From Blasia pusilla (lineage: Eukaryota): a stretch of 64,000 nt of DNA. Position numbers and translations under genes: made by a program. Below, in pieces: positions 18,000-64,000 of the stretch. The stretch lies in assembly GCA_050084515.1 (NCBI GenBank), contig CM114271.1, positions 46,562,001-46,626,000 of the forward strand, given 5' to 3'. A model generated the notes under the pieces. It searched no databases. It was not told where the DNA came from and saw nothing but the letters and a program-made list of their open reading frames with translations. Position 1 is the stretch's first letter, and each line of letters opens with the position of its first letter.

Positions 18000-19800
18000 A
18001 TTCAACAAACAAAATGGAGGAGGAGGCCATGGCGTGAATACCTCGTTCTAAAGATCCGAGTGGAGTTCAAGCTTTCGCAACACTGGTAAATCACTATCGA
18101 GGCAGTGCGATGGACTTGAGTGAAATGCGAAGGTGTTTACTTTGTTCGTCCATTCACTTTTATACAAATCAAAGTATGTTGGATTTAGGAGCAATGCTTC
18201 TTTGAAGTTATCTTGGAGAGATGGTGAGGGTAAGGAGTTTGTAGTGACATATAGGAGCCAATTGAACGAGGTTATGTAGGCAACATATAATTCATGTGAG
18301 GGAGAGTACTTACTTGTAATGTGGGTTGTAGCCCATTTTAGATGTTAATTGTATGGAAACTCTCATACTCATTACTAATCATCAACCACTTAGATGGTTG
18401 ATGAAGTTTGTCAAGTGTACTTGGAAACTTACTAGATTGATACTCTTGATGCAAGATTAAGAATTCAAGCTTGTCCATCATCCAAAACCCCTTAACTAGT
18501 ATATGAATGGCTTGAGCCACAATCTATTACCAAGCCAAAGCGACAAGGCTTTACGTTGGTGGCATAGTGGGAGTTATAAGAAGATGATATAAAATTCGCA
18601 TTCATTTTCCTTCTTATGTAAATTGACTATAAGAGATCAACAACAAATATCCATTTTAGGATGGAGGTTGGATGATGAGTTTTCAGATTTAGAGGTTAGT
18701 AAGGAATCTATGAGGAACACACATATCCACAAGAATGAGGTGTTTTTGGATTATACATACACTAGTGTCATCATGATTATCAAGGTTGCATGGAAACGGA
18801 CATGTCCTCGGACATGCCCGGCCCGGCCCGCACATGCACATGCACCCGAGCCTGCTCTAGAGCTCGCATCTCGCCTAGGAGCCCGCACCCGCATGGTGGG
18901 CTAGGGGCGGGCTCAAGGCGGACAGGGGCGGGCATGCACGGGCTCCATCAGCTTGGGTCTAGGTGGCGGGCTCGGGTGCGGGCCATGGCCCATGGGTACC
19001 CGGGCGGCCGGGCCTACACCAACATGTTCGTCCATAGGACGGACATAAGTCCACGGACATGGACATGTCTGTGTGCAACCTTGATGATTATGAGAGGTGC
19101 CAGAGACTATGTTAGAGCCCTACAACAACCTAAGAGGTTCAAGTGTAAAAGTGAAAGGATGCATGTATTTTGAGTTTGGTAGGATATTCGAGTATAGATG
19201 GTACCTCATTCTTTTTAGTAGGTACGAGTCATGAAAGATGCTTACGAGGAGTTGAGTTATTTTGGAGTCAAGCATGCTTATAGCTTGCTCAAGATTTAGT
19301 ATTAATGCCATGATATATATGTAGATTGATACTCAAAATTGTCTAGCTAAATACAGAGTTTATGATAAAGTATGAGCATCATTCAATGCTTCAAAACCAC
19401 ATTTACATTCTTTACTAATCGTGAGATTAGGTTATCGCTAGAGTTTGTACTTTTGATAGTGTTTACCATATGCATTGATGAGACATTATAGTTGACATGT
19501 GATGGTCGTTGGACTTTTTCGAGTGGATTGAATTGGTGGCATTTCCACCGGAATGGTTAATCATTTCACCACCAAAAATAAGGTGTTGATGGACAAGGGT
19601 ATTATGATCAAATGTGATTTTCAGACCTTGGAATGGAAAAAAGTTGGAGGTTATGGCATCAAAGGATTTCCTTTTGACAAAATTCATCATATTTCAAAAA
19701 TGTATACTATTAATAGAGGATCATTTTTCAGTGGAGACACTTGAGAATGCAACACGTGGCATGATAGGGGAGGGGTGCATTCAAATAATAGATCTTTAGG
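18000..19800 (+). mobile_element. Old degenerate copy of the gypsy pol (RT end, RNase H, integrase), interrupted by a MITE
   Basis: Remnants align to the younger copies: ...EGEYLLVMWVVAHFRC, HQPLRWLM, EWIELVAF. Many stops. Confidence 0.75.
18781..19083. mobile_element. hAT-type MITE, 303 bp
   Basis: Perfect 10-bp TIR CAAGGTTGCA/TGCAACCTTG; 8-bp TSD ATGATTAT at 18773-18780 and 19084-19091; GC-rich interior with GGACATG and CCCG subterminal repeats. Confidence 0.9.
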
Positions 19801-40269: not shown

Positions 40270-40740
40270 ACATTGGTCTAATGACATTTGAAAGCTTGGC
40301 TATTGTTTATCGTAAGGATATATTTGGATATACTACCATTCCTCGAGGGATTTATTATTTTGGGATTAGGAATTTCATGTTGGAGATTATATGTGCTTAA
40401 AGCAGTCAACATTGATATTTTTAGATATTACTACAAGACACACGATTTTGTGTATACGTGACGCGTTACGCATCAAAATCCTCATGTTGGAGGATCAAGA
40501 TAGTATGGTTTGGAAGGATCACGTGTGCAATTGCGTACTATGTCATCTTTCAAATCTAGATGAGAGAGTATATTCAAGCTTGGGAGTTGTACTAATAGGC
40601 TTGAGATATATGTTGTATGGATCTAAGATGGATATATCCATCATATTGGTTTGTGATGGTTTTTGTGGAGGGTATCATATGTTATGCTTCATTCCCACTC
40701 TTGATGCAGATCCCATTGAATAATAGGTGTGTGCTATATG
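40270..40740 (+). mobile_element. Degenerate integrase C-terminus and PHD fragment of the gypsy lineage
   Basis: TILCIRD...MVWKDHVCNCVLCHLSNLD...LVCDGFCGGYHMLC. Confidence 0.75.
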
Positions 40741-43700
40741 TGTATATTGTACTCTATTACATGAGGCTAAGAGTTTTAGTACTACCTAGCGTTAGGAAAC
40801 CTAATTTGTAGATAGGGGAAGGTTTGTAGTCTTGGTATATATGCATGAACCTCTTCTTTTTGTATAAATCTTCTTGGATGTTGGGAATTGATAGTGTTTA
40901 TTGTGTGAATGTGAATAGTGATGTAAATTGGGTATCGATTTGTATGCCCATGACAACTTTTAAATCATTGTTAGTCGAAACGTAGAATTCTACCATGCCA
41001 ATGGTATAGAGAATGAGCGGGATGTAAGGCTATATTTTTTTTCTTGGTCCAATGAAGTTAGTTAGAGAGTTTTTTCATTAGAACCAAAATTTTAAAAAAA
41101 CTCTTATTTTTATTTATGGCCAAGTAATCCATGGACTAAGTCAATGATCACTTAATGAATTGCGTGCATATGTGACCAATTTTTGCTATCTTTGGGTGAG
41201 GGCTCTTTTGGCTCTTTCCAAAGGTATATAAATGGAAAAGAATCTTGGATATCAAGATCCCTATTTTTCATATCAAGCGTTTGCAATACTTCTTCCTCTA
41301 AGGATTGGTACATAGGAGATAGACTGTTAAAGTTTGGATTTCCTCATGGCAAAGGGCAAAAGGATCTTGACAACCATATGTACTTTTCACTATGTTATTG
41401 GCCATATGCATGTAAGCCTTTCTTATTGCAATTTTTTTCATGGTTTCATTGTGCATGTTTTAGTATATTTCAAAGTGTATATGAATTGGAATTTGGGAAA
41501 ATCAAAGGTATTTTTTGTAAGGATATAAACAACGATATGCATGCAAAAAAAATTCCTTATATCCCTACAACAATATCGTATAGATCAAAGTATCAATACT
41601 TTGATCTACCCTATCGTTTTTCTCATAGGATCCATAAGGCAACTCATATATAGGTTATGGCCACTATTGTATGAAGGGTGAATGGGTGTAGGATAGATAT
41701 AAATGCATCATCCTCTTTAATATTTTCTTTTGATAGGTTGTAAAAAAATTCAATAATATAAATCTAACAATAAGAATGATCAATAGGAGCCCTCCAAAAA
41801 AAATTTAATGGGATGATATCCCTTTACTAATTTATCCAAAAAAAATCCGATATTCATGTTTAAGTTTATGATTCCGGATTTCAATCAACCTCTAATTCAA
41901 GATCTTTTCTTTATAAAAAATTTGCATCTAGCATTGCAATAATAACACTTCCATGTTTTTAGTGTGAATGTTAATGGTCCATATATTTTTTTTCTATATT
42001 CCATTTTAACCATACGCCACAACATTTAATCTTGTGGATGTGGAATTTTAACATAAGGTGTAATGGGAAAAATGTCCAAGGGATGCAAATACAAGCGTAG
42101 CAACCTTTGAGCCATATTCAATCTACGTTAGGGAACAAAGTTCTTTTAAAAATGATTAAATCCAGTTTAAATATCAAGAACGATCATGGATCGTCAATTA
42201 TGAATTTAGAAAGGTAGATGAGATTCTATCTATACTTAGAGGGATCTTTTTTAGTTCCCATTTTAGAAGGATATGATAACCTCTTATCTATTTTACCCTG
42301 TTAATTTACTTATATGTATGGATTACCCTTCCCTTGTGTTTGAGTAGCACTATTTGAGAGGGTTTATCTCTTATGCATCTTGTGGCACAATTAGGTGTCT
42401 TGGTAGTTGGTGATGCCACTTTGGCCTATGAGGATTAAGAAAGATGTATCATTAAAGGTAGTATCCTCTTTTATGAGGCCTTTCCTTGTTCTTCTTACCT
42501 TTGGTTCCTATGGAGAGAATTATGTATCATGTACTTCAGGTCCTTTGTGACATATTCTAGGTGGATAACCAATGCACATATGTTATCATGGAGATTGTCC
42601 ATGGAGATACATCCCCAAGGAGACTCACTTTTAGATTCATATTTAGATATCAAAGTCAAACATATGGATATCCGTGATACATTGTAGCTAGGTTATGCTA
42701 GTGTATCGGGCATGGATTTACTTAAGCTAAGAGTTGGCTAGGATTGATATTGAGATCACGTATTGGTCATTGGATTCTATTGACTCATATCTCTTTAATA
42801 TGAACATGGTATGCATATATAAAGTACTTAGCCATATTGGGAGTGCACATAGTGTTAGAACAATAAGTAATACCCTTCCAACAATTCATATCTGAAGATT
42901 TAGAAGGATTAGGTGTATCCAATCATTCATATATAGATATCTAATATTTATATGATAAATGGATCTTATATTTGATCTTATGACATCCAATGAATGTTGA
43001 TTAGAAATATATATTTGCAAGACACCAAAACTCCCTAAATTATAATGTCTAAGAACATCAAATTTTTTTTTTTTATTTTCTAGATATGGAATCTACAAAC
43101 CCTTTAATACAATTCTAGCCCAATTAACTTCTCCATGAGACTAATCCATCAATGGTTTGTTAAATGAGATCTTAGACCTATTTATACATGCCCAAATTTT
43201 CTCATTATAGGAAATTTTCTACTTGACAAGGCCTCATTTTCCTTTTTCATCTTGAGCCTTAATAATAGGAGAATTTATTTAGTACTTAGAAGTTTTTTGC
43301 AAAATTTTTGAGTTGCATGAAAATTTATTTTAGTACCTAAAAGATTTTTAACATCTAGGTTGCTTTTATGTGATACTCTTTGATTCTCCGTAATATGAAG
43401 GAACATAAAGATCATAGATTCTTAGAAAATTCCAAAAGAGAGATAAGAATTTGAGGTGATTTTCAAGAACTAGACTTTGAGTTTTTTGTTAAGTTTCCAA
43501 AGAATAATAATCTCTTAAAGATCCAACTTGATTTCTTTGCAAGTATGATGAAACTAACAAGTCTAAAGGAACATCATGGATTTGGTCAAATCTTGGCCTA
43601 ATTTTCATAACTCATATTTCATACAACAATGATACTTTCTAGTTCAAAATCAATGCCATACAAAATTAGTAAACTCAAAGGGAATTTTTGTGCATATAAT

Positions 43701-43879: not shown

Positions 43880-45560
43880 AAAGGATAAAAACCTCATCAT
43901 TATTCATCAACCACTTTAGATGGTTGATGGAGTCTAACAAGCCTATAGAAAAGCTTGCCAGATGGGCACTCTTCTTGGGGGAGTATGGTTTTCAATCTGT
44001 CCATCACCTCAAAATTCTAAACCAAGATGCAAACGGGTTGAGCGGTAATCCATACATGTGCTAGAGCGATGGAACTAGAGCTTAGTGGTATGGTGAGAGT
44101 GATGACAAGATGATGTCGTGTTGGGACACATCTACCTATTTGTGTCTATTGGCTATGTTAGGTTACCAGAAGGCATCCACTCCAAGAAGGAGATTAGACA
44201 GTGAGTCTTTATATTCAAATGCTAGTGAGGAGTCAAGAGGGACTCGAGACATCCGTGATCATGATATGGTCTTGGAGTGCTTATGCACTAATGTCTTAGC
44301 ATACACAGTGGGTACTACAAAGTGGGATTGAGTCTTATAGCAAGCATGGATTTTCAAATGGGATGGAAAGTAGGTGCTTTGAGTTTAGGAGAATGATCAA
44401 GTGCTGATAGTACCACATCCTTCACAATGTGCACAAGTTTTTAGACATGCTCACAAGGAGTTGGGCCATTTTGGATTCAAGCATATGTATAGCTTGCTTT
44501 AAATTCAATATTGGTGGCATAGTATGCAGATTGATGTTCAACATTTTGTAGCTAGATGCATAATATATGATACGATGTGGGCATCGTTCAATGCTCGGAC
44601 GTCACTCTTTCATCCTTTATTGATCACAGAATTAGGGTATTGCTAAAGTTTAGACTTTGCAAAGCCCTTACCATTGACAAGATTTGGTATGTGTTGGTCA
44701 TGGTGGAGGATTTCTCCAAATGGATTGAGTTGGTAGCATTGCTGGAAAATCGAGCAAGAGAGCATCTTATACATTTCTTAATCAAGTGATGAGTTATTTT
44801 GGCACACCAATAGAGGTGTTGTTAGAAGAGGGTATTAAGTTTAAGGATGACTTTCAAGCCTTATGTGATCAAGCACTCATAGATCATCATACAACTTCTC
44901 AAGATCATTTTAAGGCAGATAGTTTGGAGAGTTATGTGAGAAAGTTGTGAAGATGGTGAAGAGAGGATTGAGTATGCATAGGCTACAAAGATGACACTTA
45001 GGAGGTTGGGACCTACAGTTGCTCTGGTTGAAGAAGGATTACCGCTTGAGTCGATATATATCCTTGACATCATTTTCATCGTATTTCTTGCTCTATGGGA
45101 AAGAGCCAAATTTCTATCATATATGCGATAGGATGTTGTTGAGGTACTTGAACTTGATGACCCATATGTATTCTTAGTGGGCTAAGCTCCTTTGGAGAGT
45201 CATGCCTATGGCATTGGAGAATCTGGCTAGCACTCAATATTGCAATGCTCTGAGATAGGGGACGACGAGTGGAGAAGGCTATCGACCAGAGATTCGGAAA
45301 TTCCATCCTTGCAATTATGTCTACCAAAGGTAGATAGCATTGAAGATATTTGACCTGACGGCAAGACACACTATTTTGCGAGTGTGAGAGGCTTTCTCTT
45401 TAAGCGTTCTCGTGTTAGAGGATAGAGATGGTATTGTTTGGAAAGATCATATCCATAATTGTCTGTCATGTTATCTTCATAACATTGATGGGAGTGTCAA
45501 TCCAAACTTAGCAATTATTCCTACATGCTTGAGATATGTTTTGTCTGGGTCTACACAATA
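43880..45560 (+). mobile_element. Degenerate RNase H, integrase and PHD start of the gypsy lineage
   Basis: HQPL..WLMES, HKELGHFG, YVLVMVEDFSKWIELVAL, DGIVWKDHIHNC. Many stops. Confidence 0.8.
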
Positions 45561-46739: not shown

Positions 46740-47369
46740 TATCATGACTGTTAGGATAGATCGGCAAGATCTAGTAGAGCACCTTTGGAGATACTAGAAG
46801 ATAGCTTCAGGAGGTCGAGGATGACTTGCTGAGGCCACGGGTAACTTGAGAAAGCAGGTTTCCCCTTTGTTTCGGCTCATTTGGAGTCATATAGAGAAAA
46901 CTTACTATTTTGGGCAAGTTTCCATCTAGATTATAGTTGAATTTCCACTTTGGGAAGTGGCGATTTACCCGCTACAGTAGGTCAAGAGCCAAGGAGGTGA
47001 CCTGTGAGCATAGGTTATCGAGGAGAGAGCTTGGGAGAGGGAAGGGGATATACTCCAAGAGAGAGAGCTTGAGAGCTTATTCTATCTTCGTTGAACCTCT
47101 TGGCATGATGCAACGGAGCTATGATCCTCTTTGCCTTGTGTGTGTAACCCAAGCCTCTCATTAGGAGAATGGATTTAGTTTAACATGAGAGAGTGTGCAC
47201 ACCATAGAGAGCTTGGTGTGAGATGTGATATGAGATCTACTTGATTTATTGGAGATATTTTGGTACTCCTCGTCTCATTGTTTGGATGCCATGAGTTAGC
47301 ATCGAATTGTGCTTGTTTGTGTGTATGTTCAATGACAGCGATATATGTTGTGTAGCGATGCGCACGACA
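46740..47369 (+). mobile_element. Solo A+B terminal unit (solo-LTR equivalent) of gypsy subfamily 2 with 4-bp TSD
   Basis: Collinear with 8455-9099; ends tatcatga (decayed TGTCA) ... GCACGACA; flanked by TCAC at 46736-46739 and 47370-47373. Confidence 0.88.
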
Positions 47370-49309
47370 TCACCTATATAGAGAAAAACCTCTTCAAGAC
47401 TCACCTTGGGATTTACTAACCTCTCTCCTCACCCAGATCTCCAAGAAATTGACATGTCTTCATAAATTACAAAAGGGATGCCAACAAGTCATCATTATAC
47501 TATGAGATTCTAAGCCTATATGGAGATTCTCTATCATACTACATTATATTTTTTGGCTTGATTTCAACTAGAATTACACTTAACTCTCATTAACAATCAA
47601 GAGCTATCTCTTCCAATCAAGAAAGCCAACCATGGTCCTAAATAACTTCTCTAAAATGATAAGTAACGTAATATGGGCCCGATAATACCAACGTAGGCAA
47701 TAAATTACAACCAATTTTCATACAAGCATGCATATCAATGCTTGACCTCTCTAAGTATGTCACACAAAGTTACTCCTCTCCATTACAAATGACGTGTAAT
47801 AACGGAGTCATAAATTATAGGTTCCAAGTTTATAAAATTGTCTCTTTTCCAAAAGAAAAGAAGAGTGTGTGCTTCTTCAAATCACTCGTCCCAAGTATTT
47901 GCTAGTTTAATGGTTTGTGTGACTTGAGATGTTATGTTTCTTCGTCATCGATCCATGTTCATACACTCTCATACGATAGACATCCCTCATGTGTCAAGGG
48001 GAGATGGAGCAAGATGTTGATCTATCCCAAGTATGAGAAGTACAACAATTAAGAATCCAATCACCATTGATTTCTCAATAGTAATAATTTTGTGTAAGTC
48101 TAAGCACATGAACTCCATTCATTTCTCTCTTTAATGTTGCAATTATTTAGCACTAACTTATTTTGAGAGAAAATTAAACATAAAGGAAATTTGTATTTTT
48201 TTAGGATTTGGTTGTGGAAAAAAAATCTAAAATGTAATGTCTTAAGGGTAGTGAGAAGTTAAGAAAAAATGGTTGCAAGCTAAAGAAAAAAGATCTTTTG
48301 CAAGAAAAAAATAATAATTGATCATTTTTTTAAGATAAAGACATATCTATCTAAGAAGGTGTTTGAAGAGAGTGCATAGTCTCCAATAGCAGTAAAGATT
48401 GATTAAGATGAGGGGGGTTTACCAAACCGAATGTATGTAATCCTAAAAAAAATTTTCAATAGGACTTGTGTAATACTCCTTGGTGTTTGAGAGATCCAAA
48501 ATCAGGGCTATTTCAAATCCTAAACCCATGTAAACTCTATTAAAGTTTTAATTATTTTGTTGTAAAAAACATTTAGAATAAAATTTGGCAAGAAATTAAA
48601 AAATCTAATAATTGTGTCAATAGAGAAAATTATTTCAAAATATAAATCGTAGAAGGTAGTGAAAATTTCAGGAAAAATAGTGGAGGGAAGACAAGGATAT
48701 AATTTTCATAAACCAAAAGTTTAATAATGAATGATGGAACGAACAAAAATTGAGGAGCCTAAGCGTCTCCTGTCCATATCTTTGGTTCTATATCCCTCCT
48801 CTCATATTTGTGCTCTCCATCCATTGGATGATTTCATTCATGTATGTAAGAAGGGTATGACTTTCACTCTTGAATCTTGTGGGTATATGAAAACCTAAAG
48901 ATCTGACAACTCAAAACTTTCGTTCAACCCTTTAGCACAATTTTATTCCTTATGACTATGATTTTGTGATAGTAGGATTTCTCAAAGCATACCTACCCCA
49001 AGTTTTATGACTTAGTCACCAATTCGTAAAAAGAAAAAATAGGGTATTTAAGGAGGTACTTGCTTGGGTTGTAGCACATCACCATAATCCTTGAACACTC
49101 AAATATAAACCTTACATTCTTTAAAAGCAAAAAATATAATAGATGCCACAATTTATTGGTTAGAGGCCACATATGTGTAATCTCTAAAGGCTATGGCTCA
49201 TGGCCCACACAAGGGGACTTTGGGAAGCCCTATTGAGATCACACTAAACTTGTAGATTCCATTGAGAAGCTTGTAGGGACTCAAAATTGTAATAGGGTCT
49301 GAAAGTAAA

Positions 49310-50034
49310 AAAAATGCACTTTCTTATAGAAAAAAAGTCTCAAAAAGGATAAAGGAAGGCAACAACATGCCAAGAAGAGAATGAGTCAAGAAACATAAAA
49401 AGAAATTTGCAAGAAGCCATCACAAAAACCAACTCAATGAGCTACATAATGAATAACTTGAAACAAATCTCACAGAAACATTAGACGTTTACATGGATGG
49501 TCAAACAAAAATGGATGACAAGATTAGTGGCTACCAACCACTTCCGCTCGATGTGTCAAATCCAATGCTTGTGCACGTTGTAATGCCACCAGGATATATT
49601 GTCAAAAATAAGTAGTGACTATGGAGAGAGAAGGATTACGATAAGGGACGAGTTGATGATTCTTGAGGAACTAGTGAGCACATCTTTTGAAGAGATAATC
49701 AAAAGACACATATAAGTGCCCAAAAAAATCTACTATGAAAGGAATAAATCCATCGGTAATATGTCTCACCACATAACTCCTTGATTCTTGTTGATGTATT
49801 GGCCACAATAACTTTAGTATATACATCCTGACACACCACATCATAAAATATTCACTTAGCAAACCATCACATCACCCAATAGATGAAAGTCACCTTGGGA
49901 CATAACAAGATAAACTCATTCACAAGAGGTTGCTTGTGTAGTAGAAGGTAGGACGTGTAGTTACTCTTGCCCAACGATATACCTTGTTGTAGGAGCCATC
50001 AATAATATTTCCTCTCTAATCACATTGTGGGTTT
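49310..50034 (-). mobile_element. Degenerate 3' end of a second CRE-like element, interrupted by the gypsy insertion
   Basis: Collinear with 14165-14885 (e.g. gaggttgcttgtgt.gt.gaaggtaggac.tg.agtt.ctcttgcccaacg). Similarity stops at the TGTCAT start of the gypsy element. Confidence 0.8.
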
Positions 50035-50400
50035 TGTCATGACCATACGGATTATGTCGTAGAGTATGGTGTGCTAGTAGAGGCCATTCCTTATGTAGGA
50101 CCATAGTGGCTTGGTAGAAATGCGGTTCCATACATAGGGTTGGGGGTTACTCAGTTGGGGGTGACTTTCCCAGTAGGGCCCGCTCTTAGGTTGGAGGATA
50201 TAAGGTGGAGTGCACTCAAAAAATCGATTCTTTGAGTTGAGCCTTTATGCGTTGGGAGTTAGCCTTGGTAGTGAGTAGAGCTCTTGGCTATGGTGTTTCC
50301 CGCAAGCTTCGACCTAGATTCTCCCATCGTGGAGTGGGTTTGGCTCGATTGTATGTGATTGTATATGTGTTTTATGACAGTACGTCTTTCACGGATTTCA
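50035..50400 (+). repeat. 5' terminal repeat A1 (TG...CA, 366 bp) with TATA box
   Basis: TGTCATGACC...ATTTCA; TATAA at 50199-50203; homologous to 53559-53926 (-) and 63938-64000. Confidence 0.9.
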
Positions 50401-52226
50401 CTCAAAGAACTGCAGTTGATCGATGGTAGCTTCGATTGTAGATCAGTAGGATTTGGTTAGGGCTGATTGTGTACTCAACCGTGGATGTTCGTGGCTTGTG
50501 GCCTATGTTGGAGGTGTGAATCTGGTGCGTGGTTGGTTGGGAAAGAAGCGCCTTGCTGAGAGCTTTCCAACGCGCTTTAGATCGCCGGATTTCGTCAAGG
50601 GAGTTGGAAGTTATCAAGGATTGAAGATTCTGGTTCGTGTTCGACGGTTTTCTGATGTGGAGAACTTGGAGTGCGGAAGCTCTATTGAAGTTCATCCAGA
50701 TCGGGTGAGAGGTTCCTGCTGCTACTTGTATTGTGATCTCATGTGAATCTATCTGCTCGAGTGTGTGGAGCGTTGCGGATTTCTGCGTGCATGAAACTTG
50801 GCGGAAGCGCTGTCGGATTTACGATTCTGGAGGTGTATGGACAGCAAGTTTGTCTGATTTTTAGCTCGGAGTACAGAGCTCGGTTGTAGCTGATTTTTTG
50901 TGGAGAGATAGCTATGGTGGTCAATTGAATTTTGGTTGAAATATATTTGATTTCAATCACGGATTTGTGAAGTAATTTCTGATCGAAATTTCACGGACTA
51001 GCTCAAGGTCTGGCTATGGTGGACAGCGGATCGGAGGGGCTGGTTGGTTGGTGACTCGTTCATTGTTGGAGACGCCTATCCCGTTGGAGGCGCCCTGGTT
51101 GAGCCTCGAGCCATGTCTCGGAGTTTTGAGGCTTCGAGGCTTCGAGGCAACTCGTGGTAGCTCGGGGCGAGTGGGCGTGAGAGGCGGAGTAAGGAGCAAG
51201 GAGCAAGGAGCAAGCAAGCAAGTTCAACTGGAGTTTTATGGCCCTGACCAGGATCACTTTGAGTGGAAATCCGTTATAGGTGGTTTGAATTAATATTTTT
51301 GCAAACGGCACGTAGCAGGTTTTATACTTGCTTGCTTGGGCGTGAAGCAATTTTTGCAGGATTTGGGATTTGAGTTTTGCATAACTGGTCACCCATCTTT
51401 GGGCTATTCTACCTAGAGGACGCTTAACTGTTGGGTTCTTAACTATGCCAGTGTACACACTGTTGTAGCTCATTTGGTGTTGTTCGGAGATGTGTTAGGC
51501 ACTTTATGCATCTCAGGTTTTTGGTTGATGTACCTCTAGCGCATAGTACGGTGTAGCCTCTCCATACAGGTGATATTTTCAGGTGCTGTGAGTTCGACTA
51601 GCACGTCATCGACCCGCGGCGGAGTAGCTATTGCGTTAGAATTGTGTGGTGGGTTTTGTGGATTCAGGGGGCACCACCTTTGGTGGATTATGTTACCTTG
51701 AATTCCATTTGCGATTGGAGGGTTGTCGTTGGACTTCCTGTGTTTGGATCCCCTCCATCGGTGCTTCTTGCTAGCGCGCCCATTGTTAGGGTAGACGCTG
51801 ATTTCCAGAGTAGTGTTACTCCTGTGTGCTACTGATAGTGAGGCTGGAGTGATGACGAGTAGACCGTGGGAGGCTTCTTGTGGTGATGAGAGGTTAGGTT
51901 GCCTACACCCATAGCTAGTAGAGCTACACTAGTAGAGCGACATCGACGTCACTTGGTAATTTGGTGGTGGTGCGGCATCGGCATTGGTCATCACGGAGTT
52001 GTCGGGTGGTCTGGTTGGGGACCGTGGTGCGGACAGTGGTGGTTTCACACGGAGTGGATTTAGGTATCGGCTACCTTTTCCACTTCCGACGGTTGATGAA
52101 GAGGAGGACGAGGGTGTTCCAAACACCGAGTCTTCTACGTTGTTATCGAGTGTTGCAGCTCCATTGATTTGGGACATGGACGGTGGATATGGAGCCATGA
52201 AGGGCCCACGATGATACTCGGGTGCA

Positions 52227-53452
52227 GTGGGCACCATTGAGTTGGAGGACTTCATGCAGGAGTTTGATACGTGGTGTGATATGCAGATGTTGCGGAACGC
52301 CACGTTGTTTACATCCTTCTTGGCTTGGAAGGGGTTGTTTCAGCACTTGGAAGGACCACCCATGGATGATTACCATGAGTTTAGGAAGGACCATGTTGCT
52401 GAGATTGAGGCATGGAGACAATATTGGTCTCCAGGCTATGTGTCTATCACCCATGGTGGTATTGGTAGTAGTGCTCCTACTATGCCAGCCAGCCCGACGT
52501 TGAGTGGTACGAGTACGAGCCGGAGTGGGGGTACCAATGGAGGTACTAGTGGGGGTACTAGTGGAGGTTCTAGTGCCCCACTATCGTTCAGCCCGGTTGC
52601 AGAGTTCTTCAAGAGGTTGAAGAAGAACTATCAGGGAGTGAAGACGGAGAAGTTGAGGAATCTTTAGGACTTTGAGCGAAAGACTGGTGAGAGTCTTCGT
52701 GAGGCATACATTCGTATCACGCTGATTTCGATTACCAAGGTGTGCGAGGATCGAGGCGATCCATTTTTGGTATGGGATCTTGGAGAGAGATTTGCGCCGC
52801 AGGGTACGTGATGCTACTCTTATGAGTGATGATTCACCCACATTGACCCATGTATTTGCTTTATCTGAGAAGATTGAGCTTAACATGATGAAGGAGAGAG
52901 TGGTGACATCCGCATTCAGTAGGGATACAACTACTACTTCTCGTGTTCAGCCGCCCACCTCACAGTCTCGTAGTAGTGGTGGTGGTAGTAGTAGTGGGAG
53001 TCGTGGGGGGTACACACGACCTCAGTCAAGTCCTAGAGGGACACTTGCGCAGAGACCATTGCCTTCATTTGCTGCCCCGCAGCAGGGCGATCATGTTGGA
53101 CATGTGGAGGTGATCATGTTAGGAAGTTTTGTCCCCAAGAGGATGGGAGACGGACTTTGGAGGATGGGCCTCAGTCGGCCCCAACTAAGTGTGATGATTG
53201 TGGGAGACCAGGTCATCCTCGAGAGCGTTGCTTTGATCTTCATCCAGAGTTGAGATCAGGCCGCGGCCGTGGTGGAGTAGCTCTGAGAGGCCGAGGTGGT
53301 AGAGGTGGTAGGGGTGGACCAATGGTTGGAGAGCCTACGGTGGCTACCCCTACCACTACGACAGAGTCAGCTATGGCTACCAGGATTGAGCAGTTGGAGC
53401 AGAAGTTGGCTACTATGGCTGGTATCCAGCATAGATCAGGTTCGGGAGCAGG
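52227..53452 (+). pseudogene. gag with two zinc knuckles (frameshifted, truncated by the nested insertion)
   Basis: Capsid-like ELEDFMQEFDTWCDMQ...FFKRLKKNY; knuckles CWTCGGDHVRKFC (~53094) and CDDCGRPGHPRERC (~53190); RGG-rich tail. Confidence 0.8.
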
Positions 53453-56400
53453 TGTCGTGCGAATCCACATCGTCATACAACATACATCGCTGACATACCA
53501 TACGCACATACATACATAACATAGACGAGAGTATCCACAAAGGCAAGTGTACCACAATTGAAATGCGTGAAAGACCTACTGTCATAAAACACGTTTACAA
53601 TCACATACAATCGAGCAAAGCCCACTCCACGATGGGAGAATCTAGGTCGAAGCTTGCGGGAAACACCATAGCCAAGAGCTCTACTCACTACCAAGGCTAA
53701 CTCCCAAGCATAGCAGGCTCAACTCAAAGAATGATGTTCTTTGAGGGCAAGCCACCTTATATCCTCCAACCTAAGAGCGGGCCCTACTAGGAAAGTCACC
53801 CCCAAGTGAGTAACCCCCAACCCTATGTATGGAACCACATCTCTACCAAGCCACTACGGTCCTACATAAGGAATGGCCTCTACCAAAGACACCATACTCT
53901 ACGACATAATCCGTATGGTCATGGCGGTGTCGTGCGAATCCACATCGTCATACAACATACATCGCTGACATACCATACGCACATACATACATAACATAGA
54001 CGAGAGTATCCACAAACGCAAGTGTACCACAACTCGCCCCCCTAACTGGCGGTTAGGTCCCTCTAACTCCCAGGTAGCCCTATACATCTACTACATGCTA
54101 TACACCTTCTTGGGTGCCCGAATCAGAAGGCCGGGTGCTAGGTTGCCCCATCGTTAGTCGCACATCGTAATCCATATCATGCAAAGATCAAGTCATCTAC
54201 CTCTCCTAAGTACATCGAGGACAAACCCACCTTCCAGTAGGAACAACATCCAAACGTGGAGTCAAACACATCATGTGCCAACCCCTAGAACACCGATCAC
54301 ACACCAACATACGGGTTGCGTTACCAGCAGACCCACACAACATGCACCTCAAGCTAGCACGTATCATGGCTAAGCTTGGGTCAACAATACCATCCACATT
54401 TGGAAGATGACATGGCGCACAATTACGCACATGGTCCTTCCAAACAACTCCATCACGACCCTCCAACATGAGAACTCGAAGCTAACACCTCACACACTCG
54501 TAAAATAGTGCGGCTGCCATCACATCCAACGTTGTCGGGCAATCTGCTGCAAATAGACATAGTCCCCACATGGAACCTACTGAATCGATGGTAGATAACC
54601 TCCACTCGAATGGTTGCATACCGCAACGTATCCTGTGTTGAGCAATGGCAAGATTCTCAAAGGTTGTTGGCATAACTCTCCGAAGAGCTCCGCCCCGAGA
54701 ACACACCCTCATCCACATCTCGGGTCATCAAGGTTCACCACCTCACTAGACTCGACAATTCTTTCTTTGGCAAGTCAAGATCTCGACCGTATAACAGAAA
54801 ATAAGGTGAGAAGGAAGCCAAGGATGCTTGGCGATCGAACCTATATCCCATGGCTAACCATGGCAAGCTCGAATATCCTGTCTCCAAGATGCCCTTCAGA
54901 GGCCATACTTGCGCAATGCCCTCTTCACCGTCGAACCACATGCTCAGCCAAACCATCCGCCTCTGGATGATCTCGAGGCGTGGTCCGATGATCAATCAAC
55001 GCCTTGTCACACAAGACATGAAACTCACCTGAAACTCAGACCCTGGTCGGTCAAGACACTTCAGTGGTGCACCAAAATGACTAAGCACTCTATCCAAACG
55101 CATACGCCGTTCCTCACTTGCCTTGTCCGGTAATGCCACCAACTCAATCCACTTGGAGAAGTGCTCCACCATCACCAACACATATCGATGATGTAAATGC
55201 GGTGAACGGTAACGGTCCCGCAAAGTCCACACTCCAACGGTAACCCAACCCCATAATAGGCAAGGGGTGTAATTGTGGTGTAGGGGCATTAAATGATGCC
55301 CTCACCGGTCACAAACCATACAACGTGACACGAATGCTGCACCTGAGTATGCATGCCACGCCACCAATCTTGGCCAAGGAGTAAGCTATACGCACGCTTT
55401 ACCCCAAAATGTCCCAACTCCTCATGGACATGTCGCACAATCGCTCTCTCTCGAGCCAAATGTGGCACTACTCGTACTCTACCATCCTCCCACACGCGGA
55501 GAATATGTGTTCCCTCAATCGATACCTCTTAGCACGTTGAAGAACACGGTCTCGCTCCTTGGCACTCACTATGCCTGGCACCCTCTTTGGTCCGTAGGAA
55601 CTCCAACACCAACGCATCATCATGAATATCACGCTGATCCGTACCACCATCTCCAACCTTAGGATCTGAAGGCTGGCCGTCTACCCTCTGACTAGAGTAA
55701 GATATCATGTGGTCCTCCATACTAGAGTCCACCCCTAACCAACATAAAAAGGCGGATGCATGCCAACCTGGCACCATCTCCTCATCAACCTCGCCATGCC
55801 ATCTAGCCCCAGTTGTATCCTCTTGGCTAGTACATGGGTTCCTACTCAACCCATCAACATCAAGGTTGGCAACTCCAGGTCTATGTACCACCTGGAAGTC
55901 ATACTCCTGTAAGATAAGAGCCCACCGTGCAAGCTTCCTTGTAAGCTTGTCCGACTCCATCAACCACTTGAGCGGCCGGTGATCAGTAACAAGGGTAAAC
56001 TGTGTGCCAAACAAGTAACACCTAAAGTGTGCCACAGCCCACACTATTGCCAAGCACTCTCCCTCATATGAACTATAGCGCGACTCCGCTGCATTATTCG
56101 AACGACTTGCATAGGCCACCACAAACTCCATGTGCTCATCATCATATTGTGTCAACACCGCTCCAAGTCCCAACCTACTCCAATCAGTGTGTAACTGGAA
56201 TGGGCGCCCTCTGATAGGTCTCCTCAAGATAGGCGCCGCCACCAACTGGGCCTTAAGCTCCACAAAAGCTCTCTCTTGATCATCTCCCCAGTGCCACTCT
56301 TGATATGATTTCAGCAATTGGTTCAAAGGCTTTGCCATAGCACTAAATCCCTTCACATACCTCCGATAGTAGTTCGCCAATCCCATGAATGCTCGAACTC

Positions 56401-59400
56401 TACTCACATCTACCGGACGCGGAATAAGTGCAATAGCCTCCACCTTTGCTTGCTGAACTCCCAAACCACCTGGATAGATCACATAACCCAAGTACTCAAC
56501 ATCCTCATGGAAGAACTTACACTTTCCTGGATGCAAACGTAGACCATGAGCTTTCAACCGCTCAAACACCATCTGCAAATGTATTTGATGCTCCTCCACC
56601 GTGTTACTGAACACCAAGATATCATCAATGTAACACCGAACAAAATCCAACCCTGCTAGGATCCTGTCCATCACTCTTTGAAACTCGGAAGGTGCATTCT
56701 TCAACCCAAAGGGTAAGAATTTCCACTGGTACAAACAATCCTTGCCATGAGAGTTGACATCCCAAAATCGTTGTCTTGGCCTTGTCACTCTCCCGAATCG
56801 GCAATTGATGGTATCCTGCCCGAAGATCCAAAGTACTGAAAATCTTTGCCTGTCCCACCACATCAAAGATCTCCTCAGGTGTAGGCATGGCATACCTATC
56901 GGCCTTGGTTTGCCGATTGATAGGACGGTAATCTCCACACATCCGCCTATCCGTGTAGTTGCCATGCATATCCTTTTTAGCAGGCATGATAGTGGTTGAT
57001 GCATACTCTCCATGCGACAACTCCACTAATCCAGCCTCCAAAAGGTCCAACGTCCTACTCTGAATCAAGTCCCTCTCCATATCACTATATCGGTAGGGAC
57101 GACAGAAGATTGGCGTATCACTAGCCAAATCAATCCGTATACCGGGTCCAACCAGAGAACCCAACTCCTTCATGCTAAAGGCAAAACAACTCCTATAAGC
57201 ACGTAGGAGGCTGTGTCAGCGTCGTTTCTCACCTCCCGTAGCTTGGGCCCAAGTAATGGCTCCCAAGTCTCCTCCTTTGGCACACTAGAGGGAGAGGCGA
57301 TGCCATTGTCTGCTCATAACCCCCTCACAAGATGGTACACCCTTAGCTACACCATCATCCGAGCAAATAACTCCTCCACCAAAGCATGAGCAACCAACTC
57401 CACATGCCCACCATTACATCCCATCTACTCCAAGGATGCAAAATACTACTCTCCTCTTGACCGATGCCTCTACCGTCCCGGTAGCCATCGAGCTCATTAC
57501 AAGGGGTGGAAGACCCATGACATAGTCCGAAGTCGATTTGCTCGGCCATACCAAGACTCAAAATCCAAGTCAAACAATTCAGGTCCATGGCGACCCAACA
57601 CATGACGTCGTGAAGCCTCGAAATAGAAGCAACATTTGTCACACCGATGCAAATCCCATCGCACGCTCTCTCTCATCAGCGTTAGGCTCCACCAATTGTC
57701 GCACATGAGAATCCCATACAAGCCCCCAGGACCACCTTCCTGTAGGCATGTGACGAGGAAAACTCACAAATGTGGGTAGTGCCATCTAGGGGTGGCCCAC
57801 ACGGTTCACCTTGCCATGGGTGACCGATCAATAACCCTCACCACTTGAGAAAGTCGCCCAAGATATCAAGATACTATCCATTGTAAGGCGAGATCATTGC
57901 CTTTGCATCATATGCTCGACGTAGAACCTCCCTAGGCAACAAGTTTGTCCACCACAAGCGTGGGCGATGTGCACGTGAGCCAACTCGCATTGCATCCAAC
58001 AACACCGCTGGTCCAATCCAAGACCGCACCTCATGAACACTCGCCATCATCCGGGTCCGAGTGTCACCCAACAATGGAACATTCTCCAAAATGCTAAGCT
58101 AGAGCACGCGCTTGCGATGAACATTGAAGATGTCGTAACACCCGTAACATCTCCCAAAACAATCGAGCTAGGGTCATGTAATCCCTCACCACGACCAAAG
58201 ACGTGTATGACATCTCGACATGGCCATCCGATGCAAATCACCAAATCCACAGGACCAACCTCTCAAGGTCCTGCGCTCAACAATGCAATGTGTGATGGTA
58301 AAGCATCGGTACCCACGAATAGCTAATGGCGGCAACAATGGGGGGATACCTCCATCAAGCGACCAATATGTGGATGAGACTCTCGGTGGGCGACCGTCTC
58401 ATCTCGCTCCACATACACGTATATCCCTAAGAGGAATACCGGCTGCAACATGGATGCATTACCAAACGTGCTGATCCCACCAAAGAGATCTAACACACAA
58501 ATTGCCCTATGTTGGCGAGTGGGATCTTGCCATACAATGGGTGTAGTATCCAAAGGGGATAACCCAATAGAGTCTTGTTAGGAGTCCGTGGGGTCTCCTC
58601 TTTGATGGGGAAAGCGGCATGACCTCACACCAAGCCTCTGCACTAGGCTTGAGCCTTGCCCATTCTAGATTCAAACATCAAAGTGGCACATCCAACGATG
58701 AGGATGCCAATTCTGCAAAAATAGGGACCTCCTCTACCTCCTCATGAGGAGAATCCATAGCAGAAACATAACCCTCCAAAAGTCTCTGGCCAAGTGACTA
58801 CTCCACTAAAACCACCCGTATGATGCTAACATTGTTGGGGAAGACCCTCCTAGTCGAGCCCCCAAATAAATCTCAGATGGAACTTGGCTCATACGTCCAT
58901 CCCCGGATTGCCAACCAGGTCTGTAAGACGTTGTCTCGATTTATTTAATCCATCTGAAAACCCATCGGGTCTTCTCCTCCAACTAGTACATCATACGACT
59001 GGTTTTAGTGGATGTGACTCACTTGGCAGATATTCCCAAGGGAGCTTTCGCGTCGCATGATTGGTCTCAATGAGGTACAAAAAACTTCTCCCTATCATGA
59101 ATTGAGATCTATCATTGGCTCCTCCAAGTGATGTTTGAATCTAGAATGGGCAAGGCTCAAGTTCGCCCTCGAATACCCCAAACCAATACATGCCGCCTTG
59201 CCCAACATCAAGGGCTGCGCTCCTGAGTCTAACAAGACTCTATCCGGTCTATACACTGCCTTGTAGGACTCACCAATCGGAAGATCCCACTCCGGTTGTC
59301 CAACATACATACACCAGGTGTAAGCCTTCACGATCAATGGTTGGCCGTCGATGTAATGCATCCATCTTCGCGGTATTCTGCCTGCCGGAAGTAACGTGGT

Positions 59401-59735: not shown

Positions 59736-59749
59736 CGTGCTCTAGCTTA

Positions 59750-60300
59750 CATTTTGGATAATGTTCCATTGTTGGGTGACACTCGGACCGGATGATGGCG
59801 AGTGTTCATGAGGTGCGGTCTTGGATTGGACCAGCGGTGTTGTTGGATGCAACGCGAGTTGGCTCAGCGTGCACATCGCCCACGCTTGTGGTGGACAAAC
59901 TTGTTGCCTAGGGAGGTTCTCGTCGAGCATATGATGCAAAGGGCGGGATCTCGCCTTACAATGGATAGTATCTTGGATCTTGGGCGACTTTCTCAAGTGG
60001 TGAGGGTTATTGATCGGTCACCCATGGCGGTGGTGAACGTGTGTGGGCGGCCTACGATGGCACTACCCACATTTGTGAGTTTTCCTCGTCACATGCCTAC
60101 AGGGAAGGTGGTCAGGGCTTGTATGGGATTCTCATGTGCGACAATTGGTGGAGCCTAACGCTGATGAGAGAGAGCGTGCGATGGGATTTGCTCGGTGGTG
60201 TGACAGCGGTTGCTTCTATTTTACGAGGCTTCACGACGTCATGTGTTGGGTCAGGCCATGGACCTGGAATTGTTTGACTTGGATTTTGAGTCTTGGTATG
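59750..60300 (+). pseudogene. C-terminal half of the DNMT domain in the outer copy
   Basis: DNVPLLGD, RAHRPRLWWTNL, EPNADERERAMGF and HVLGQAMDL fragments across frameshifts. Confidence 0.8.
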
Positions 60301-60540
60301 GCGAGCGTCGACTTCGGACTATGTCGTGGGTCTTCCACCCCTTGTAATGAGCTCGATGGCTACCGGGGACGGTAGAGGCATCGGTGGGGCGCAGGAGAGT
60401 AGTATTTTGCATCCTTGGAGTAGATGGGATGTAATGGTGGGCATGTGGAGTTGGTTGCTCATGTTGGTGGAGGAGTTATTTGCTCAGATGATGGTGTAGC
60501 TAAGGGTGTACCATCTTGTGAGGGGGTTGCGTAGCAGCCA

Positions 60541-63500
60541 ATGGCATCGTCCTCTCCCTCTAGTGTGCCAGTGGAGGAGACTTGGGAGCCATTACTTGGG
60601 CCCAAGCTTACGGGAGGTGAGAAACGACGCTTGACACAGTTCCTACGTGCTTATAGGAGTTGTTTTGCCTTTAGCATGAAGGAGTTGGGTTCTCTGGTTG
60701 GACCCGGTATACGGATTGATTTGGCTAGTGATACGCCAATCTTCCGTCGTCCCTACCGATATAGTGATATGGAGAGGGACTTGATTCAGAGTAGGACGTT
60801 GGACCTTTTGGAGGCTGGATTAGTGGAGTTGTCGCATGGAGAGTATGCATCAACCACTATCATGCCTGCTAAAAAGGATATGCATGGCAACTACACGGAT
60901 AGGCGGATGTGTGGAGATTACCGTCCTATCAATCGGCAAACCAAGGCCGATAGGTATGCCATGCCTACACCTGAGGAGATCTTTGATGTGGTGGGACAGG
61001 CAAAGATTTTCAGTACTTTGGATCTTCGAGCAGGATACCATCAATTGCCGATTCGGGAGAGTGACAAGGCCAAGACAAAGACATTTTGGGGTGTCAACTC
61101 TCATGGCAAGGATTGTTTGTACCAGTGGAAATTCTTACCCTTTGGGTTGAAGAATGCACCTTCCGAGTTTCAAAGAGTGATGGACAGGATCCTAGCAGGG
61201 TTGGATTTTGTTCGGTGTTACATTGATGATATCTTGGTGTTCAGTAACACGGTGGAGGAGCATCAAATACATTTGCAGATGGTGTTTGAGCGGTTGAAAG
61301 CTCATGGTCTACGTTTGCATCCAGGAAAGTGTAAGTTCTTCCATGAGGATGTTGAGTACTTGGGTTATGTGATCTATCCAGGTGGTTTGGGAGTTCAGCA
61401 AGCAAAGGTGGAGGCTATTGCACTTATTCCGCGTCCGGTAGATGTGAGTAGAGTTCGAGCATTCATGGGATTGGCGAACTACTATCGGAGGTATGTGAAG
61501 GGATTTAGTGCTATGGCAAAGCCTTTGAACCAATTGCTGAAATCATATCAAGAGTGGCACTGGGGAGATGATCAAGAGAGAGCTTTTGTGGAGCTTAAGG
61601 CCCAGTTGGTGGCGGCGCCTATCTTGAGGAGACCTATCGAGGGCGCCCATTCGATTACACACCGATTGGAGTAGGTTGGGACTTGGAGCGGTGTTGACAC
61701 AATATGATGATGAGCACATGGAGTTTGTGGTGGCCTATGCAAGTCGTTCGAATAATGCAAATGGAGTCGCGCTATAGTTCATATGAGGGAGAGTGCTTGG
61801 CAATAGTGTGGGTGTGGGCACACTTTAGGTGTTACTTGTTTGGCACACAGTTTACCCTTGTGTTGATCACCGCCGCTCAAGTGGTTGATGGAGTCGGACA
61901 AGCTTACAAGGAAGCTTGCACGGTGGGCTCTTATCTTACAGGAGTATGACTTCCAGGTGGTACATAGACCTGGAGTTGCCAACCTTGATGTTGATGGGTT
62001 GAGTAGGAACCCATGTACTAGCCAAGAGGATACAACTGGGGCTAGATGGCATGGCGAGGTTGATGAGGAGATGGTGCCAGGTTGGCATGCATCCGCCTTT
62101 TATGTTGGTTAGGGGTGGACTCTAGTATGGAGGACCACATGATATCTTACTCTAGTCAGAGGGTAGACGGCCAGCCTTCAGATCCTAAGGTTGGAGATGG
62201 TGGTACGGATCAGCGTGATATTCATGATGATGCGTTGGTGTTGGAGTTCCTACGGACCAGTAGGGTGCCAGGCATAGTGAGTGCCAAGGAGCGAGACCGT
62301 GTTCTTCAACGTGCTAAGAGGTATCGATTGGAGGGAACACATATTCTCCGCGTGTGGGAGGATGGTAGAGTACGAGTAGTGCCACATTTGGCTCGGAGAG
62401 AGCGATTGTGACAGCGACATGTCCATGAGGAGTTGGGACATTTTGGGGTAAAGCGTACGTATAGCTTACTCCTTGGCCAGATTGGTGGCGTGGCATGCAT
62501 ACTCAGGTGCAGCAGATTAGTGTCACGTTGTATGGTTTGTGACCGGGTGAGGGCATCATTTAATGCCCCTACACCACAATTACACACCCTTGCCTATTAT
62601 GGGGTTGGGTTACCGTTGGAGTGTGGACTTTGCGGGACCGTTACGTTCAGCATGCGACATCATCGATATGTGTTGGTGATGGTGGAGCACTTCTCCAAGT
62701 GGATTGAGTTGGTGGCATTACCGGACAAGGCAAGTGAGGGAACGGCGTATGCGTTTCTGGATAGAGTGCTTAGTCATTTTGGTGCACCAGCTGAAGTGCT
62801 GACCGACCAGGGTACAGAGTTTCAGGGTGAGTTTCAGGTCTTGAGTGACAAGGCGTTGATTGATCATCGGACCACGTCTCGAGATCATCCAGGGGCGGAT
62901 GGTTTGGCTGAGCGTGTGGTTCAGACGGTGAAGAGGGCATTGCGCAAGTATGGCCTCTGAAGCGGCATCTTGGAGACAGGATGTTCAGTTGCCATGGTTA
63001 GCCATGGGGTATAGGTTCAGTCGCCAAGCATCCTTGGCTTCCTTCTCACCTTATTTTCTGTTATATGGTCGAGATCCTGACTTGCCAGCAGCAATTCGTC
63101 AGGAGTCTAGTGAGGTGGTGAACCTTGATGACCCAGAGATGTGGATGAGGGTTTGTTCTCAGCGGGCGGAGCTCTTCCGGAGAGTTATGCCAACAACCTT
63201 TGAGAATCTTGCCATTGCTCAACACAGGGATACGTTGCGGTATGCAACCATTCGAGGTGGAGGTTATCGACCATCGATTCGTAGGTTCCATGTGGAGAAC
63301 TATGTCTATTTGCAGCAGATTGCACCGACAACGTTGGATGTGACGGCAGGCCGCACTATTTTACGAGTGCGCGAGGTGTTAGCTTCTGGAGTTCTCATGT
63401 TGGAGGGTTGTGATGGAGTTGTTTGGAAGGACCATGTGCGTAATTGTGCGCCATGTCATCTTCCAAATGTGGATGGTACTGTTGACCCAAGCTTAGCCAT

Positions 63501-63660
63501 GATACGTGCTAGCTTGAGGTGCATGTTGTGTGCATCTGCTGGTAACGCAGCCCGTATGTTGGTGTGTGATCGGTGTTCTAGGGGTTGGCACATGATGTGT
63601 TTGACTCCACGTTTGGATGTTGTTCCTACTGGAAGGTGGGTTTGTCCTCGATGTACTTAG
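60541..63660 (+). pseudogene. pol: RT, RNase H, integrase and PHD finger (several frameshifts)
   Basis: RMCGDYRPIN, FSTLDLRAGYHQ, LPFGLKNAP, YIDD; RH EGECLAIVW; HHCC zinc region (HEELGHFG...CMVC); catalytic core VEHFSKW, LTDQGTEF, GLAER; terminal C4HC3 PHD CMLC...CDRC..GWHMMC...WVCPRC. Confidence 0.93.
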
Positions 63661-64000
63661 GAGAGGTAGATGACTTGATCTTTGCATGATATGGATTACG
63701 GATGTGCGACTAACGATGGGGCAACCTAGCACCCGGCCTTCGATTCGGGCACCCAAGAAGGTGTATAGCATGTAGTAGATGTATAGGGCTACAGGAGTTA
63801 GAGGGACCTAACCGCTTGATTAGGGGGCGAGTTGTGGTTTTGTGTGTTTGTGGATACTCTCGTCTATGTTATGTATGTATGTGAGTATGGTATGTCAACG
63901 ATGTATGTTGTATGACGATGTGGATTCGCACGACATTTGTCATGACCATACGGATTATGTCGTAGAGTATGGTGTGCTAGTAGAGGCCATTCCTTATGTA

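Follow-up and report, generated by a model that had tools for sequence, protein, structure and literature searches.

In the 64,000-nucleotide stretch of contig CM114271.1 analyzed here (hereafter the window) lies a degenerate Ty3/gypsy-type retrotransposon whose host is a liverwort; it has gag, reverse transcriptase (RT), RNase H, a DDE integrase and a C-terminal PHD finger. Judging from sequence comparisons, minus-strand synthesis of this element (E1) was probably primed by the element's own RNA rather than by a tRNA, and a tRNA primer appears unlikely. The evidence comprises a word flush with the 5' terminal repeat (A1) that is complementary to a site within that repeat, the conservation of this arrangement in three lineages, sense transcription across the joint between A1 and the leader, and the recurrence of the word's first one or two bases in joints between repeats at the 3' end. 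Moreover A1 is not a plain long terminal repeat (LTR). Its family combines a DDE integrase and 4-bp target duplications with direct repeats that are split (A1...B1-A2-B2), and this architecture is a more novel feature than the self-primer site.

In the window, A1 (TGTC...TTTCA) occupies 50035-50400 of the plus strand, as delimited by its similarity to an inverted second copy and by the unrelated DNA adjoining its left side; its end at 50400 is the point where similarity to the inverted copy at 53923->53559 (93.5%) stops. Flush with that end stands a word resembling a primer-binding site (PBS), ACTCAAAGAA, at 50400-50409 (plus strand), which over 10 nt is the exact reverse complement of TTCTTTGAGT at 50228-50237 (plus strand; arm 2), the proposed self-primer segment. 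The TATA-like motif TATAAGG (50199-50205, plus strand), kept in every lineage as TATAAAG, TATGAAG, TATAAAAGG or AATAAGG, starts 29 nt upstream of 50228. All of these coordinates, which an initial annotation made from the letters alone had proposed as a sign of self-priming, were verified, as was its claim that no TGG-type PBS adjoins A1: the first TGG lies at 50424-50426, 24 nt away. No tRNA genes were found in the window or in 60 loci scanned. Between the TATA-like motif and arm 2 stands arm 1, ACTCAAAAAA (50214-50223, plus strand), which is one base off the PBS-like word and forms a local hairpin with arm 2. The same annotation had described this upstream arm in both A copies and an analogous hairpin behind a TATA-like motif in a second subfamily (subfamily 2); both were located, the former as CTCAAAGAA at 53745->53737 (minus strand) in the second A copy and the latter at the equivalent place within 8770-8805, where CAAGGAGAGAG (8770-8780) and TTCTCTCTTTG (8795-8805) lie downstream of GGGTATACC. 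A profile built from four A copies found no 5' end of subfamily 2 in the window. When words starting at 50396-50406 were compared with the dinucleotide-shuffled repeat, a complement of at least 10 nt arose in 0.7% of 20,000 shuffles, a figure that does not require the position behind the TATA-like motif.

Relatives were fetched from metagenome contigs via an alignment of 26 integrase-PHD tails: 600 candidate stretches yielded 503 that encode a relative, from which 80 loci were kept, and BLAST with the A and B repeats of defined elements found matches in 62 of the 80. As 5' repeats we took 17 A copies with a unique left flank, representing 14 distinct insertions (three pairs share flanks). The relatives form three deep lineages, whose tails are ~72-83%, 55% and 47-48% identical to that of the window's element. 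In all three, the bases after A1 pair with a site in the same repeat ~100-170 nt before its end, and across the 14 insertions the best or homologous duplex is formed by the first post-A1 bases and A positions ~147-194. The words themselves have unrelated letters in the three lineages: that of the window's lineage is ACTCAAAGAA with variants (17 nt perfect in L022, or 23 with two G.U pairs; 12 nt in L014; 10 plus 7 with one G.U in L031), that of the L069 lineage is AAAATCCA (8 nt perfect, or 16-19 with one mismatch), and that of the L073/L080 lineage is AATTCTAGAAAAACT (15 nt in L073 and 13 in L080). In relatives the complementarity reaches 2-13 nt upstream of the window's 10-mer.

Several controls bear on this pairing. 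With shuffled post-A1 words, the observed score was reached in at most 6 of 500 trials for eight of the 14 insertions. When words and repeats were swapped, own-lineage combinations scored 23-50, 33.5 and 28-33 in the three lineages, as against 12.5-22 for cross-lineage ones. Among the 10 sequences of the window's lineage, 93% of cells in the 10-bp helix are paired; double changes, U-A to C-G and G-C to A-U, affect two of its pairs and occur both in L032 and in L048. In the 23-pair version of the helix, pairing fell from 78.4% to 33-49% when the partner was shifted by 1-3 columns. RNAalifold picked the same helix unprompted, as the closing stem of a branched structure, and the RNA fold of L022 contains a 24-bp long-range duplex (z of -2.59; equally good in 2 of 200 shuffles). 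Arm 1 is deleted in L011 and L081 and absent from the L073 lineage, and pairing between arm 2 and the PBS-like word is retained in all of these. Thus the covariation among subfamilies by which the initial annotation had proposed to check its reading was found, and self-priming is well supported by a pairing that is conserved with changed letters in three lineages. A second word, TTCTTTGAGTG, occurs ~74 nt before the A end in L027 (2467-2477) and L081, where it fits the post-A1 word better than does the decayed canonical site; it may be a shifted primer site or a chance match.

The repeats at the 3' ends give independent evidence. There, both families of the window and 24 of the 62 loci (20 distinct by flank) are arranged as a polypurine tract (PPT) followed by B1-nn-A2-x-B2, with a G-run adjoining B1 in 24/24 such loci and A1 also present in seven of them; another 23 loci (19 distinct) run from PPT and B into unrelated DNA, eight were too short to tell and seven are otherwise arranged. 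B precedes A1 in 0/17 of the 5' ends, and no A-B-A form occurs among them. Instead of two identical bounding LTRs, copies thus run A...B-A-B or A...B, with the PPT adjoining B and the PBS-like word adjoining A. The A...B-only copies are about as numerous as the split-repeat copies, and they could have arisen from a one-repeat intermediate or by recombination of B1 with B2. All integrated termini are TGTC...GACA, of the TG...CA type, and 4-bp target duplications flank three of four complete A...B-A-B elements (L022, AAGG; L027, CATA; L069, CATA) and three of four A...B elements (L011, ACTA; L080, CCAA; L048, TGTG); these counts are from the metagenome loci, the window's own element extending past the window end. 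No Pfam match to a tyrosine recombinase was found in 20 open reading frames (ORFs) scanned.

All internal B1|A2 joints have the form GACA-nn-TGTC; the A2|B2 joint varies from lineage to lineage. In the window's lineage it reads ...TTTTC, A, then A or G, then TTGTGG, where the first A is the base with which the PBS-like word starts and the G is that with which the PPT ends; in the L073 lineage it is mostly CA, the first two bases of that lineage's own PBS-like word. These A-x-B joints independently support priming at this place, because they show cDNA that ends precisely where A does, with the first one or two bases of the PBS-like word added. A further base at the joint of the window's lineage could come from the PPT end. 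A plain 2-LTR circle opened randomly at either internal junction was considered and rejected: it predicts A-B-A-internal-B, which is absent from the 17 5' ends.

Tf1 of Schizosaccharomyces pombe is said to prime with the first 11 nt of its own mRNA, and on this model the initial annotation had expected transcription to start at ~50228. We compared 49900-50800, at 90% likeness, with three raw RNA-seq runs (X22, X23 and X24, which carry the same species label as the best DNA match) and one contig set. Reads were nearly all of one orientation, consistent with sense RNA; the left flank was not covered at all, A had a depth of 60-190 and the leader (to 50800) one of 10-40. Most reads over A derive from internal B1-A2 copies; reads with the B end as a loose end before 50034/50035 numbered 121, 142 and 100 in the three runs. 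None of the reads listed continues from A into B2 and depth tapers over 50300-50400; therefore transcripts seem to end near the A end. The sole start cluster among those listed is at 50196 (plus strand), upstream of both hairpin arms, with 23 molecules beginning there in X22 (depth 88) and 19 in X24 (depth 95; X23 is not listed); the counts are near the leader depth of the same runs, and no listed loose end falls at this position. At 50226-50228, none of the listed starts of the three runs was found (ordinary RNA-seq maps 5' ends poorly), and the loose ends seen at 50228 belong to reads of copies with a different loop.

The expected start at ~50228 was therefore not supported, the more so because pairing in relatives reaches upstream of that position. 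The candidate start at 50196 is favored over 50228, and the RNA probably starts upstream of 50228. On the other hand, in L014, L048 and L073 the duplex starts at AG, 26-32 nt past the TATA-like motif, which would suit a start there. TATAAGG can be regarded only as a putative TATA box, since the start cluster sits 3 nt upstream of the motif. What stood of the Tf1-like proposal is the self-complementary word flush with the repeat and the absence of a tRNA-type PBS next to it; what was not supported is a primer made of the first ~11 nt counted from 50228. In ~80% of the reads CTCAAAGAA is separated by a 7-nt loop from the TTCTTTGAGT that follows it, which gives 13 nt complementary to 50400-50412, and none of the variants listed lies inside either 10-mer, while 50226/7, 50245, 50247, 50412, 50413 and 50417 vary. 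A 281-nt contig of run X11, whose RNA label is a guess, spans 50228-50495. Reads of all three runs (3, 5 and 4, respectively) join 50350 back to 50064 with 4 nt shared, which could reflect either template switching within A or a genomic copy that has been rearranged, and four reads of X23 have a strand-switch joint at 50035.

Under self-priming, the segment ending at 50237 (TTCTTTGAGT and, in most members, a few upstream bases) would fold onto the word (50400-50409/12) that stands directly behind the 5' repeat. Cleavage on the 3' side of the paired segment, such as the RNase H of Tf1 performs, would leave a 3'-OH, and DNA synthesis would begin by copying 50399, thereby fixing the repeat end at 50399/50400. 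Strong-stop DNA would then start opposite 50399, its 5' end carrying ...UUCUUUGAGU RNA. With an RNA start at 50196, pairing would involve the last 10-23 nt of a longer 5' primer instead of the first 11 nt; the primer is thus probably longer than the 11 nt of Tf1 or internal to the RNA. The two frames themselves can be seen in the repeats: the LTR defined by reverse transcription is B-nn-A, with the PPT at its left and the self-primer site at its right, and integration uses the termini TGTC(A)...(B)GACA. Joining of both cDNA ends would give A-x-B, and a cut by the DDE integrase at the internal GACA-nn-TGTC would yield A-internal-B-nn-A-x-B. Since the frame of the integrated copies is permuted relative to that of B-nn-A, the cDNA ends would, under such a two-frame reading, have to join before the integrase cuts the internal junction. 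We tentatively propose, as a possibility somewhat short of even, that this liverwort and moss lineage of integrase-bearing elements combines two repeat frames, an obligatory joined-end pre-integration DNA (circular or end-switched), and a self-primer longer than that of Tf1 or internal. To our knowledge, no integrase-bearing retroelement with an obligatory joined-end route has been described.

Several results weigh against self-priming. Six of the 14 insertions paired no better than shuffles (L011, 79 of 500; L081, 70; L032, 98; L087, 112; L048, 149), and the sixth is the window copy, whose looser duplex score, taken alone, was matched by 43/500; its RNA folds, also taken alone, were no better than those of shuffled sequences (z of -1.19 and -0.60). 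By itself the window copy is thus only moderately unusual, and therefore the weight of evidence lies with its relatives. The column-shuffle control of pair counts was not significant in the window's lineage (41-76 of 500), an expected outcome for sequences so alike; uncompensated mismatches occur in L027 (two), L011 (one), L081 (two) and L087 (two), and every copy examined is degenerate and riddled with stops. The lack of listed RNA starts at 50226-50228 belongs here as well: if the genomic RNA starts at 50196, the paired segment is internal, unlike in Tf1 as described. Finally, arm 1 rivals the PBS-like word for pairing with arm 2, a competition under which the pairing could have another purpose. 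The modest figures of the window copy are what a chance match in one copy would give, and yet the probability of such a match is negligible, as the exact 10-mer arose in only 0.7% of shuffles and the arrangement recurs in 14 insertions of three lineages.

Of the explanations that grant the pairing but give it another origin or role, a long-range RNA structure with a different job (hiding the 5' poly(A) signal, packaging or dimerization, or translation control), priming being done by something else, is improbable. It would account for arm 1 and the PBS-like word as alternative, switch-like partners of arm 2, for transcripts that seem to end near the A end, so that the 5' copy of that site needs a bypass, and for a start cluster that places the paired segment inside the RNA. 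It does not account for duplexes that in most lineages start at most 2 nt from the repeat end, the obligatory place of the minus-strand primer in LTR-type elements, where no other primer site is visible, nor for the first word bases copied into A2|B2 joints; moreover pairing between arm 2 and the PBS-like word remains in the L073 lineage, L011 and L081, where arm 1 as its switch partner is missing. Alternatively, the leader start might be a passive by-product, i.e. an inverted duplicate of the hairpin region made by recombination or template switching with no role in priming. In L022, indeed, 23 nt of the leader start repeat arm 1, the loop and arm 2 almost completely in inverted form, which exceeds the length that a primer requires. 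We nevertheless consider this very unlikely, as independent lineages with unrelated words all set the duplex flush with the repeat end, and a PBS refreshed from its primer is itself a prediction of self-priming. Equally small is the probability that a host tRNA or other cellular RNA primes at 50400-50415 by an internal segment (a half-tRNA, as in some copia elements), the match to the repeat being secondary. Such sites are given for ~2% of plant elements in the portion of PMC6317226 available to us, but the words differ wholly between lineages and each fits its own repeat, which one host RNA cannot explain; no TGG adjoins A1, and beyond ~12 nt after A1 the expressed copies vary (50412, 50413 and 50417). 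Priming by the element's own RNA thus remains the preferred reading.

As far as we know, self-priming has been established experimentally only for Tf1 and its close kin, and in plants there are only predictions from sequence. With Tf1/Tf2 and the Tf1/sushi group this family shares the lack of a tRNA-type PBS, a post-repeat word that can pair with RNA of the element itself close to the start of R, the order of RT, RNase H and integrase, a repeat end that coincides with the duplex start and a branched structure within the primer/PBS stem. It differs from Tf1 in the extent of pairing (10-23 nt as against 11 nt) and in RNA reads that start 32 nt upstream of the 10-mer, and from Tf1/sushi chromoviruses in having a PHD finger, with no Pfam chromodomain in the ORFs scanned, and split repeats (A...B-A-B) in place of plain LTRs. 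Given the PHD finger, the split repeats and a primer that is maybe not 5'-terminal, membership in the Tf1/sushi group is not established, and the likeness appears to be a functional one. PMC6317226 (Neumann et al. 2019) states the self-priming of Tf1 in general terms and predicts the same mechanism for TAR copia elements and for Tcn1 chromoviruses, which occur in mosses and clubmosses. These resemble the present family in a bryophyte host range and in a predicted self-priming that replaces a tRNA PBS; Marchantia, liverworts and PHD each occur 0 times in the text of that survey. For SM-Tcn1, neither a tRNA site nor a self-priming site was found according to the available part of PMC2864245.

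The termini invite comparison with a different order of retroelements. TOC1 of Chlamydomonas is a split-direct-repeat retrotransposon with a tyrosine recombinase, and the tyrosine recombinase of split-repeat elements is not known to leave a target duplication. Ngaro, PAT-like and VIPER elements have the same A1...B1-A2-B2 termini, transcription that runs from inside A1 and ends before the outer end, and restoration of the missing parts from the internal B1-A2. What sets the present family apart from these elements and their tyrosine recombinase is an rve DDE integrase, termini of the form TGTC...GACA and target duplications of 4 bp. Among the papers listed on split direct repeats, every one deals with tyrosine-recombinase elements or is a general review. 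Cleavage of 2-LTR circle junctions in foamy virus and HIV-1 offers a precedent for an integrase that cuts an internal ...CA-nn-TG... junction, although such cleavage of a palindromic joined-LTR junction is a side pathway in retroviruses, according to the accessible passages of PMC1180852 and PMC1905944. In retroviruses, moreover, the junction lies at the joined LTR ends, whereas here it would lie inside the LTR defined by reverse transcription and be cut as the regular route. No description of this family was found in the open-access literature searched, as far as its text was available.

Three lineages with three unrelated primer words provide a natural covariation series, and since the family is transcribed in a transformable model liverwort, the mechanism is directly testable. 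The elements combine features of different retroelement orders, namely split direct repeats with a DDE integrase, TG..CA termini and target duplications; if their cDNA must join end to end before integration, this would bear on whether joined LTR junctions serve as integration substrates. On the practical side, such elements of bryophyte genomes will be missed or wrongly annotated by LTR-finding software built to expect a tRNA PBS and two identical repeats at the flanks.

The window DNA is eukaryotic and dense in transposon remnants. Of its five A copies (nhmmer) just one, A1, is a 5' end; the first 65 nt from 50033 match 63936-64000 at 65/65. Downstream of A1 follow a G+T-rich leader of ~1.8 kb (50410-52214, plus strand) without ORF or Pfam match, and gag remnants in three frames (52215-53450, plus strand), in which two CCHC-type knuckles were read by eye from translations near 53080-53200; these remnants identify A1 as a genuine 5' end. 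Pfam gave no match on gag, leader and spacer ORFs. The pol of the plus-strand copy (59736-63660) comprises RT (60535-61674), RNase H, the integrase core (62412-62960) and a frameshifted PHD finger (62932-63660), with Pfam E-values of 3.9e-33 for RVT_1, 4.3e-12 for rve and 8e-11 for PHD; the same pol domains occur on the inverted copy at 57215->54200, where RT_RNaseH scored 1.1e-36. Along 60535-62960 and the inverted copy, the order of RVT_1, RT_RNaseH, and then rve plus Integrase_H2C2 is typical of Ty3/gypsy (Metaviridae-type) elements. After pol come the PPT AGGGGGCGAG (63822-63831, plus strand), immediately 5' of B1 (63832-63935, ending GACA), the dinucleotide tt and A2 from 63938 (TGTC...), this 3' end (63832-64000, plus strand) being interrupted by the window end.

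Hypothetical PHD proteins labelled by their sources as Marchantia polymorpha share 83-88% identity with the integrase-PHD piece at 62932-63657, and further relatives come from another liverwort, a peat moss and many metagenome contigs; these PHD-tail relatives identify the host as a liverwort. The cysteines and histidine of the finger are conserved across the 26 aligned relatives (liverworts and mosses), and the finger stands at the extreme C-terminus of the integrase, the place held by the chromodomain in chromoviruses, for which no Pfam match was found in the ORFs scanned. It may represent a different route of chromatin reading for target choice. Among viral contigs, a scan with an 18-letter pattern gave nine chance-like matches, which were not used, and a protein scan for relatives gave no match.

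A 4.3-kb inverted duplication (95.7%) pairs 53863-58108 with 59736-64000, the part from pol to A2, around a 1.6-kb spacer. The 3' end of the inverted second copy (53451-54032, minus strand) consists of B1 (54032->53926), A2 (53923->53559), one extra A and B2 (53557->53453) plus 2 nt; since this B2 keeps two bases past its GACA and abuts antisense gag, the copy came by rearrangement, not integration. The spacer contains a protease-like ORF with an LLDSGA motif recognized by eye (59520->59095, minus strand) and also, at 58313-58678 (plus strand), an inverted ORF that is weakly related to it (32% over 138 aa, E 2.4e-4), both without Pfam match. Pieces of subfamily 2 lie within 7593-9100 and 46751-47370, with one 3' end of the form PPT-B-A-B at 8318-9100; an isolated A-B unit of this subfamily, whose flanks agree at only 3/4 bases, resembles the solo unit that recombination between A1 and A2 would leave. 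Further diverged relatives in the window are a PHD tail with PPT and a B-like block (40284-40960) and an RNase H-integrase-PHD remnant (43897-45555); at 17996-19639 lies a gypsy pol that is more distant. The left flank of A1 (49534-50025) belongs to another repeat family, of which a 74% identical copy lies at 14380-14876; the element was therefore inserted in an older repeat.

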